Shown here: positions 52,674-54,248 of the stretch, piece by piece
How the letters are laid out: every line of letters begins with the position of its first letter
Numbering within the stretch: the stretch's first letter is position 1
Source: Syntrophobacterales bacterium
GTDB lineage: Bacteria; Desulfobacterota; Syntrophia; Syntrophales; UBA2192
NCBI GenBank assembly: GCA_018053845.1
Contig: JAGPKU010000005.1
Span: 1 to 62,472 of the forward strand
Direction of reading: 5' to 3'
DNA: 62,472 nt
Notes under the pieces: model-generated
Told to the model about the DNA's origin: nothing
The model's database searches: none
Seen by the model: the letters and a program-made list of their open reading frames with translations, nothing else
Program-made: the position numbers and the translations under genes

Positions 52674-54248
52674 TCATCCTTTGACCGGATATCCGTCACC
52701 GTACACCAGCATCCGGTAGGTCTTCTCGATGCGGTCCCAGTTCTCCTCGCGGTCCATGGACCAGTAGCGGCCGATCACGCTGACCACCCGGCCCAGTCCG
52801 AGCTCGGCGCACTTGTCCTCGATCTGCCTGACGTAGTTGGCCCCGCTCTCGGGCAACTCGCCGCGGCGCCCCAGCATGGCGTGGATGTACATCTCGGCAA
52901 CCTGCTCCCGCTTCGCCATCTCCATCAGCGCGAGCAGATGGTGCATCATGCCGTGGGAGCTGAAGAAGGAGACGATGCCCATGAGGTGCAGGGCCGTGCC
53001 GCGGCTGCGGCTCTCGGCCATGGCCTGCCGGAAGACCCTGTTGGCGAAGAAGGACCCGTCCTCGATGGCGCGGTCGATCTTCAGACGGTCGGAGCACACG
53101 CGCCTCCCGGCGCCGATGTGCAGATGCCCCGCCTCGGAGTTGCCCACCGTGCCCGCCGGCAGCCCCACGGCCTCGCCCGCGGCGGCGAGGGTGGCGAAGG
53201 GCAGGGCGGCCAGCAGGCCGTCCATGACGGGGGTGGACGCCCTGGCGATCAGGTTTCCCCTCGTCTCGGGGTTGTAGCCCCATCCGTCCAGGATGAGCAC
53301 GACGAGCCTGCGGCAAGGCGCGGCCGGCCCCGAGAGCAGCAGGGATCTGCCCTCCATTCGCCTCGGCGCGGGGATCCCGAAGAGCTCGAGGATCGTGGGG
53401 GCCACGTCGGCGAGTTCGCCCTCGCGCCGCAGCGGCGGGGGGGTGTCGCCGTCGACGAGGATGAAGGGCACGGGGCTCGCGGTGTGCCCCGTGTCGACGG
53501 TGCCGTCGGGGTAGCGCCAGCGCTCCACGGTGCCGTGATCGGCGGTGACAAGGACCGGCACCCCCGCCTTCCGGGCCTCGCCGATCACGAGCCCCAGGGC
53601 GCCGTCGACGGCCTCGACGGCGCGCACCACGGCGGTCTCGTTCTCGATGTGGCCGACGACGTCCACGTTGGCGAAGTTGGCGAGGATGAAGTCGTGGCGG
53701 CCCTCGCGGATCGCTCGGACCGTGGCCTCGGCCACTTTCCGGACGGACATCTCCGGCGCCTCGTCGAAGAGCCGCACGTCCTTGCGGGTGGGCACCACGA
53801 TGCGGTCCTCGCCGGGGTAGGGGGCCTCGCGCTTGCCGTTGAGGAAGTAGGTGACGTGGAACGCCTTCTCCGCCTCGGTGATCTTGACCTGCCGGAGCCC
53901 GCTGCGGGAGAGCACCTCGCTGAGGGTGTCCTCCAGGTCCTCCTCGGGAGGGAAGGCCACGTCGGCGCGGAGGTCCCGGGAATACTCGATCATGGTCGTG
54001 AAGTGCAGGCCGAGGGGGCCGGCCGTGGGGAACTCCCGGAACCCCTCCGCGGTGAGGCTCCGCGAGAGCTCCACCTCGCGCTCGCCGCGGATGTTGTAGA
54101 AAATGACCGTGTCGCCCTTCCCGATCCTCCCCACGGGCTTTCCCGAGGGGTCGACGAGGACCAGGGGGTTGAGCGTCTCGTCGTCCTCGCCCCGCCGGTA
54201 GGCCTCCCGCACCGCCCGGGACAGGATATTCGATTGCAGCGTCGGCAT
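52674..54248 (-). CDS. gpmI: 2,3-bisphosphoglycerate-independent phosphoglycerate mutase, apparently circularly permuted
   Basis: Track ORF 52674..55790 is trimmed to ATG 54246-54248. All iPGM motifs are present but in the order C-terminal-type segment ([53 protein letters not shown]), then N-terminal-type segment ([42 protein letters not shown]). Confidence 0.85.
   Translation of the reverse strand: [524 protein letters not shown]

Follow-up and report, generated by a model that had tools for sequence, protein, structure and literature searches.

A circularly permuted cofactor-independent phosphoglycerate mutase in Syntrophales bacteria

The gene and the order of its domains

Cofactor-independent phosphoglycerate mutase (iPGM), known from textbooks as an enzyme of glycolysis, is also a drug target in nematodes, trypanosomatids and Gram-positive bacteria, and it relies for catalysis on a hinge motion between two domains, one of which is nested in the other. 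Here we analyse an iPGM gene in a stretch of 62,472 nucleotides (nt) from a Syntrophales bacterium (contig JAGPKU010000005.1 of assembly GCA_018053845.1), which is referred to as the window in its full length. An earlier note, made from the letters of this DNA without database searches, had proposed that positions 52674-54248 encode an iPGM in which the N- and C-terminal segments have changed places, i.e. a circularly permuted enzyme. These coordinates are right, with the gene lying on the minus strand. The domain limits given here were set by Pfam coordinates together with an alignment to the iPGM of Geobacillus stearothermophilus (PDB 1EJJ, 511 amino acids), and they divide the gene as follows:

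52674..54248, minus strand: complete coding sequence of the circularly permuted iPGM, 524 amino acids plus TGA stop (ATG at 54248-54246, TGA at 52676-52674)
53955..54248, minus strand: residues 1-98, second half of the phosphotransferase (iPGM_N) domain, approximately 1EJJ 214-305, with R54 and R57 (corresponding to Arg261 and Arg264) and the new N-terminus
53334..53954, minus strand: residues 99-305, C-terminal part of the phosphatase (Metalloenzyme) domain, approximately 1EJJ 306-510, with K128, D196, H200, D237, H238 and H255 (best Pfam stretch 99-293)
53307..53333, minus strand: residues 306-314 (SGPAAPCRR), linker from the ancestral C-terminus to the ancestral N-terminus, filling the gap between the two 1EJJ matches
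53079..53306, minus strand: residues 315-390, N-terminal part of the phosphatase domain, approximately 1EJJ 6-81, with the Mn ligand D321 and the nucleophile S371 (codon 53136-53138)
52677..53078, minus strand: residues 391-524, first half of the phosphotransferase domain, approximately 1EJJ 82-215, with H432, R462, G463 (replacing Asp154), R494, R500 and the new C-terminus (Pfam iPGM_N at 391-519, profile positions 1-129 of 217)

Compared with 1EJJ, the window protein is of similar length and about 40-45% identical over two segments, which appear in exchanged order: residues 12-305 correspond to 1EJJ 219-510 (223.8 bits, E = 3e-65) and residues 315-520, without any gap, to 1EJJ 6-211 (189.8 bits, E = 6e-55). 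As a criterion for circular permutation we took a single colinear high-scoring segment pair (HSP) against a doubled reference, as opposed to two swapped ones against the same reference in single copy, and this is the pattern found. Single-copy canonical iPGM gives two swapped HSPs, and a doubled canonical iPGM (P0124x2) a single one that extends over query residues 12-519 in 509 columns with 4 gaps and 416 bits; with two further references (P0125 and P0138), making three in all, the outcome is unchanged. With E-values from 1e-55 to 1e-139, chance similarity is ruled out.

The hidden Markov model (HMM) scan that the earlier note had suggested leads to the same picture. Pfam Metalloenzyme (PF01676, 198.1 bits) and iPGM_N (PF06415, 184.5 bits) each match in two stretches, in the order iPGM_N(C-half) - Metalloenzyme - Metalloenzyme - iPGM_N(N-half), and not in the colinear order Metalloenzyme - iPGM_N - Metalloenzyme, which every distinct iPGM sequence matched in the PDB (11 in total) has. 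The iPGM equivalog TIGR01307 is matched above its cut-off (477.9 versus 330.65 bits), again in two stretches, with query residues 10-304 corresponding to profile positions 214-504; the strict equivalog NF003897, with its match likewise split in two, reaches 404 bits versus a cut-off of 862. The window protein is a circularly permuted iPGM with the order [~214-511]-linker-[~3-213]. The order [213-511]-linker-[1-212] in the earlier note was therefore right, as both the swapped 1EJJ matches and the single HSP against the doubled reference demonstrate, and a colinear canonical order, which the note had named as the finding that would speak against it, is not what is observed. All motifs it had quoted are present in the succession it had described, and its estimate for the linker (nt ~53305-53340) agrees with the measured 53307-53333.

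The phosphatase domain of canonical iPGM carries the transferase domain as an insertion, and two hinge peptides join them (PMC5382265, PMC8113725). Going by the domain matches, this nesting is inverted here: it is the phosphatase domain that is contiguous and the transferase domain that is split, with both hinges kept. The window protein shares with canonical GpmI/GpmM (TIGR01307; PDB 1EJJ/1O98) the same two Pfam domains, the Ser nucleophile, the two-metal site, the Arg/Lys/His ligands and both hinges, but differs by the cut at about residue 214, by this exchange of contiguous and split domains and by replacement of Asp154 and of the SDGGVHS motif (see below). Across 124 permuted homologues the linker measures 8-20 amino acids (8-13 in most) and its sequence is not conserved. 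Such a short linker would place the old termini next to each other, and its variability is what is expected of a surface connector that joins them. In one Syntrophales-type protein (P0088), a low-complexity insertion of about 100 amino acids rich in P, A, S, G and D (residues ~305-406) sits exactly at the linker, so the junction tolerates large insertions.

The alkaline-phosphatase-superfamily core with its metal and Ser chemistry is also common to the archaeal-type iPGM (ApgM; TIGR00306, PF10143) and to DeoB, but the cap domain of these differs and the window protein belongs to neither family. Its similarity to archaeal-type iPGM and phosphopentomutase is weak and partial (37.8 bits versus a cut-off of 320 and 31.7 versus 254, respectively), and identity as an ApgM was rejected on that TIGR00306 score and on NF003104 (35.4 versus 489).

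Conservation, distribution and origin of the permuted form

An important question is whether the permuted order belongs to the organism at all or to the assembly, in which a tandem duplicate of a canonical gpmI might have been collapsed or mis-joined, as the earlier note had itself considered. When one genome of each GTDB species was scanned, however, 80 loci, all from Syntrophales-type lineages (Syntrophus, Smithella, Smithellaceae, Syntrophaceae), were found to encode residues 1-523 or 9-523 as one open reading frame (ORF), and more than 120 proteins in the databases align with the full length of the query in unchanged order, at 61-96% identity and 98-100% coverage. The identical architecture in 80 independent species genomes and many metagenomes, produced by different assemblers, extends to closed chromosomes from isolates as well as from long-read metagenome-assembled genomes (MAGs), among them NZ_CP175563.1 of Syntrophus buswellii DM-2 and OY762510.1, and to the finished genome of S. 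aciditrophicus SB, where the protein is ABC77850.1 / Q2LUU2. Moreover, flanking synteny is conserved on both sides. A macro-domain gene follows immediately 3' on the same strand in 72 of the 80 loci, usually after a gap of less than 100 nt, and an upstream divergent block (a 110-amino-acid hypothetical gene, pcm and an nlpD-like gene) is found in 75-77 of them; neither another copy of the iPGM gene nor a piece of one occurs elsewhere in the window. An assembly artefact, in favour of which nothing was found, was rejected on these grounds as far as sequence data allow, and has practically no probability left.

Nor is the gene a decaying relic of a rearranged gpmI, i.e. a pseudogene, which is about as improbable. 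One active-site Asp has been lost, as might happen in such a relic, but the ORF of 524 codons is intact, a ribosome-binding site and a promoter-like site are present, and the ratio of nonsynonymous to synonymous substitution rates (dN/dS), determined pairwise against nine orthologues, is 0.16-0.26 and similar in both halves. At least 140 residues, with the catalytic ones among them, are invariant over 37 orthologues. The permuted iPGM gene is under purifying selection, and these dN/dS values and residue conservation rule out the pseudogene that the earlier note had also argued against. Only in the ten linker codons is pN roughly equal to pS, i.e. evolution there is near-neutral.

The permuted order is not a one-off either. 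An exhaustive HMMER search covered 1.84 billion representatives clustered at 50% identity, and among the 150 top matches listed 132 were canonical and about 17 permuted. When a profile was built from the core members outside Syntrophales (for the core clade, see below), 117 new proteins were retrieved and all 117 were permuted; the few of these with a named source bear the names Chloroflexi or Anaerolineaceae, and there are some on contigs as long as 2.75 Mb. A profile search with four outlier permuted proteins returned mostly canonical iPGMs. One permuted cluster includes HDD45277.1 of Ca. Desulfofervidus auxilii. As far as sequence matches tell, the permuted form is common to hundreds of anaerobic bacteria from at least two phyla, including Anaerolineae (Chloroflexota), Ca. 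Desulfofervidus and other lineages; the search for homologues, proposed in the earlier note, has thus revealed a large family. Within Syntrophales, the permuted iPGMs (61-96% identical to the window protein) have flanking genes in common and show no difference in kind, and the same order and cut site recur in ABC77850.1/Q2LUU2, in WP_093884734.1 of S. gentianae, in HDD45277.1 and in MAG proteins named after Anaerolineaceae or Chloroflexi.

Two unusually long predicted proteins were encountered among the matches. P0230, from a Logan contig of 15.6 kb, is predicted to have 5027 amino acids, taking up nearly the whole contig, with a permuted iPGM module at residues 3854-4370, and P0245, with 2349 amino acids, includes a canonical iPGM at residues 892-1436. 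Fusion into giant proteins, or else artefacts of gene calling or of the genetic code assumed, could account for both.

Natural circular permutations are a well-known phenomenon, and the permuted iPGM, while of interest for protein evolution, iPGM mechanics and annotation, is not categorically new in this sense. The glutathione synthetases of eukaryotes and of bacteria provide an example (cited in PMC2876114), in which fold and active site are likewise kept and the termini moved, with duplication, fusion and truncation as the usual explanation. Unlike in that other enzyme family, permuted and canonical iPGMs are both bacterial and still clearly similar in sequence. Here, too, gene duplication and fusion may have been followed by loss of both ends. 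Among matches of at least 590 amino acids no intermediates (partial duplicates, N-C-N or C-N-C) were found, the extensions of these proteins matching neither half of the window protein a second time, so duplication followed by truncation stays an inference.

Whether this happened once or repeatedly was approached with a neighbour-joining tree of 158 sequences, in which the permuted ones had been un-permuted before alignment (200 bootstraps). A core clade of 22 permuted sequences, consisting of Syntrophales and representatives at about 40% identity, is recovered in 200/200 replicates. The permuted sequences as a whole are not monophyletic, with the bipartition of all permuted sequences obtained in 0/200, and five lineages with canonical motifs (P0128, P0133, P0136, P0241, P0230) fall among the canonical enzymes. 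Both results speak for the alternative that the cut site is a hot spot permitted by the structure, at which permutations took place several times independently. Yet, none of the five placements is supported by more than 57/200 replicates, and if the core clade evolves faster, a distance tree could for that reason set it apart from the others. All permuted lineages, moreover, have the cut site in common within about 5 residues, and G40-R41 is present in all 27 permuted sequences, with R at this position in only 15% of the 131 canonical representatives. The shared cut site and G40-R41 favour a single origin with subsequent spread between phyla, which is probably what happened; repeated independent origin is rather unlikely.

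Active site and likely function

For the active site, the 27 permuted sequences were compared with 131 canonical representatives in 1EJJ numbering. The Ser nucleophile and all seven metal-site residues are invariant in 27/27 permuted sequences; the window protein has S371, D321, D196, H200, D237, H238 and H255 where the canonical enzyme has Ser62, D12, D403, H407, D444, H445 and H462, respectively. Also invariant in all 27 are H66, H123, R153, R185, R191, R261, R264 and K336. Out of the eight substrate-pocket residues H123, R153, D154, R185, R191, R261, R264 and K336, the window protein has kept seven, with D154 being replaced by G463. The earlier note had regarded the catalytic Ser motif and the metal-ligand motifs as retained: this holds for Ser371 and every metal ligand, but the substrate pocket is not fully canonical, a point that it had missed (Asp154 to Gly463, SDGGVHS to SFFSSHG).

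We consider it likely that the window protein, a natural circularly permuted member of the bacterial-type GpmI family, operates by the canonical mechanism. Its chain would begin about halfway through the transferase domain, in a loop at the surface (~1EJJ residue 214), and run through hinge 2 into the C-terminal phosphatase part; the short unconserved linker would then tie the old C-terminus to the old N-terminus, and the chain would proceed through the N-terminal phosphatase part and hinge 1 to end in the first half of the transferase domain. Two Mn2+ ions would be held by D321/S371/D237/H238 and by D196/H200/H255. Phosphate from 3-phosphoglycerate (3-PG) or 2-phosphoglycerate (2-PG) would pass to Ser371, and the Arg/His cluster of the transferase domain would hold the glycerate during its reorientation before the phosphate is returned.

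Activity as a Mn-dependent 3-PG/2-PG mutase with the canonical phosphoserine mechanism seems probable for several reasons. The catalytic and the cationic substrate residues are fully conserved, the TIGR01307 score exceeds its cut-off, and the gene, present in one copy, keeps its neighbours throughout an order that has to run gluconeogenesis. In addition, a permuted relative with canonical motifs is linked to glycolysis: at L081 6001-7626 (GCA_040960375.1, JBFOMN010000100.1), a permuted iPGM with SDGGVHS and DGRD shares 8 nt with the 3' end of pgi, which places it in the context of a glycolytic operon.

A number of observations weigh against this assignment, at least for the core clade, and some of them concern the substrate pocket itself. 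Asp154, which we take to lie in the glycerate pocket and to contact glycerate, is Asp in 128 of the 131 canonical representatives, but is replaced throughout the 22-member core clade, by Gly in Syntrophales and by Ser or Gly elsewhere. In the same clade Val122 and Gly121 have both become Ser, SDGGVHS has turned into S-x-x-SSHG (SFFSSHG in the window protein), and DGRD reads GRRG in Syntrophales; the five permuted lineages outside the core clade keep the canonical motifs. The derived SFFSSHG and MLGRRGE-PESG are in turn invariant among 37 Syntrophales orthologues, i.e. the pocket is constrained but different. The structural comparison speaks in part for the assignment, as a confident AlphaFold2 model, built with 37 orthologues (mean pLDDT 85.3, pTM 0.77), finds its best PDB matches in closed, substrate-bound iPGM (1O99/1EJJ/1O98; rmsd 3.0 A, 300 columns, TMq 0.50). 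It is one-sided, however: Foldseek, being a sequential aligner, can superpose just one of the two swapped segments. To this may be added the scatter of permuted sequences in the tree, as described above.

Further points of this kind come from the gene content of the genomes. S. aciditrophicus has been reported to possess no cofactor-dependent phosphoglycerate mutase (PGM), one bacterial iPGM and three archaeal-type iPGMs (Foster et al. 2010, PMC2964296). The single bacterial iPGM in that count is the permuted protein, there taken for an ordinary one, and with alternative PGMs available it need not be the housekeeping enzyme. None of the gene contexts in the core clade is classically glycolytic, and in Syntrophales the neighbour is the macro-domain gene. 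In 5/5 Chloroflexota-type (Anaerolineae-like) loci (L083, L086, L087, L088, L089), one or two HAD hydrolase genes precede the permuted iPGM gene and an archaeal-type iPGM gene (PF01676+PF10143; NF003160 562 bits versus a cut-off of 468, scored in L083 only) comes after it, followed in 4/5 of them by one or two genes for PRK-family kinases of about 340-410 amino acids. The presence of two iPGM types in one operon suggests a specialized pathway. In two loci of the Ca. Desulfofervidus type (L084, L085), a giant gene runs 44 nt into the start of the permuted iPGM gene; the product of this giant gene, of more than 2100-2400 amino acids, has PPDK_N and P-loop kinase-like domains. Separately, it was observed that the Anaerolineae-like cluster adjoins LacI/RpiR regulators and sugar-acid genes.

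Taken as a whole, the replaced pocket residues, all fixed within the clade, the three archaeal-type iPGMs of S. aciditrophicus, the HAD phosphatase, archaeal-type iPGM and kinase genes in the Anaerolineae-like loci and the macro-domain gene immediately downstream in most Syntrophales could indicate an iPGM homologue with a new function. Such a protein would have kept the Ser/two-metal chemistry, but the core clade would use another phospho-acid or phospho-sugar, or act as a phosphatase, leaving glycolysis to one of the archaeal-type iPGMs in the same genomes. We regard this as a real alternative, but an unlikely one, since none of the cationic substrate ligands varies and neither does His123, TIGR01307 is matched above the equivalog cut-off, the gene occurs in one copy and keeps its neighbours across the order as a housekeeping gene would, and coupling to pgi is seen in a related permuted lineage; besides, operon neighbours in bacteria are often functionally unrelated. 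A more specific version, which we think rather doubtful, would make the core clade (Syntrophales, Anaerolineae, Desulfofervidus) non-glycolytic altogether, with a new phosphomutase or phosphotransferase specificity that was acquired after the permutation and is marked by the loss of Asp154; its partners would then be the macro protein in Syntrophales and the cluster of HAD, archaeal-type iPGM and PRK-like kinase proteins in Anaerolineae.

Annotation, wider interest and surroundings of the gene

Permuted iPGM sequences have been public since the release of the S. aciditrophicus genome, annotated as PGM without mention of the permutation. The author of the earlier note was not aware of a described permuted iPGM, and in the open-access literature, searched for permutation together with iPGM/PGM, for Syntrophus and for the protein accessions, we found no such description either; a text search of the same literature gave no proteomic evidence for ABC77850/Q2LUU2. 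In RefSeq, WP_202943548.1 and WP_093884734.1, like several MAG proteins, are named 'alkaline phosphatase family protein'. This naming may be tied to the split match, which stays below the NF003897 cut-off (404 versus 862); if so, it amounts to systematic under-annotation of a glycolytic step in Syntrophales. As the permutation makes strict equivalog HMMs fail, and given such names, metabolic reconstructions of syntrophic Syntrophales and Anaerolineae may miss or mis-call the PGM step.

In terms of mechanics, inverted nesting with the same hinges and the same active site represents a ready-made natural experiment in which the effects of chain connectivity on folding and on domain closure can be followed. 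The loss of Asp154 together with conserved gene clusters, on the other side, raises the possibility of a new specificity.

In the window, the permuted gene is accompanied by the following features:

54330..54358, minus strand: sigma-70-like promoter match TTGACC-17-TATGAT, 10/12 positions (consensus match only)
54253..54260, minus strand: Shine-Dalgarno-like GGAAAGGA, 4 nt before the iPGM ATG, read from the sequence
52511..52583, minus strand: two perfect 8-bp inverted repeats (hairpins), ATTCCCGC/GCGGGAAT and ATTCCGCA/TGCGGAAT, at 52511-52530 and 52554-52583, with a T-rich run after each on the coding strand
51879-52448, minus strand: macro-domain gene (O-acetyl-ADP-ribose deacetylase type; NF001664 218 bits versus a cut-off of 200)

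The gap between the iPGM and macro-domain genes measures about 225-260 nt in the window and contains both hairpins and a promoter-like site. Located 3' of the iPGM stop and before the macro-domain gene, the two hairpins are candidate terminators. The first-listed inverted repeat, the only one that was searched for elsewhere, is unique within the window.

Two small ORFs lie nearby. The 110-amino-acid ORF at 54432-54764 (plus strand), which has no Pfam or NCBIfam match, is divergent from the iPGM gene, lies upstream of pcm and occurs in 75/80 Syntrophales loci. A Cys-rich ORF of 96 amino acids at 51563-51853 (plus strand; CxxC...CxxC, zinc-ribbon-like) follows a P-type ATPase gene and has no Pfam match, but is conserved in 9 related loci. 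Very long spurious ORFs are typical of high-GC DNA, and in the region 47574-55790 such ORFs of 929-1275 amino acids overlap the real genes on both strands, i.e. on the opposite strand or in other frames; a listed ORF of 1038 amino acids is the iPGM frame itself, which stays open upstream of the true start.

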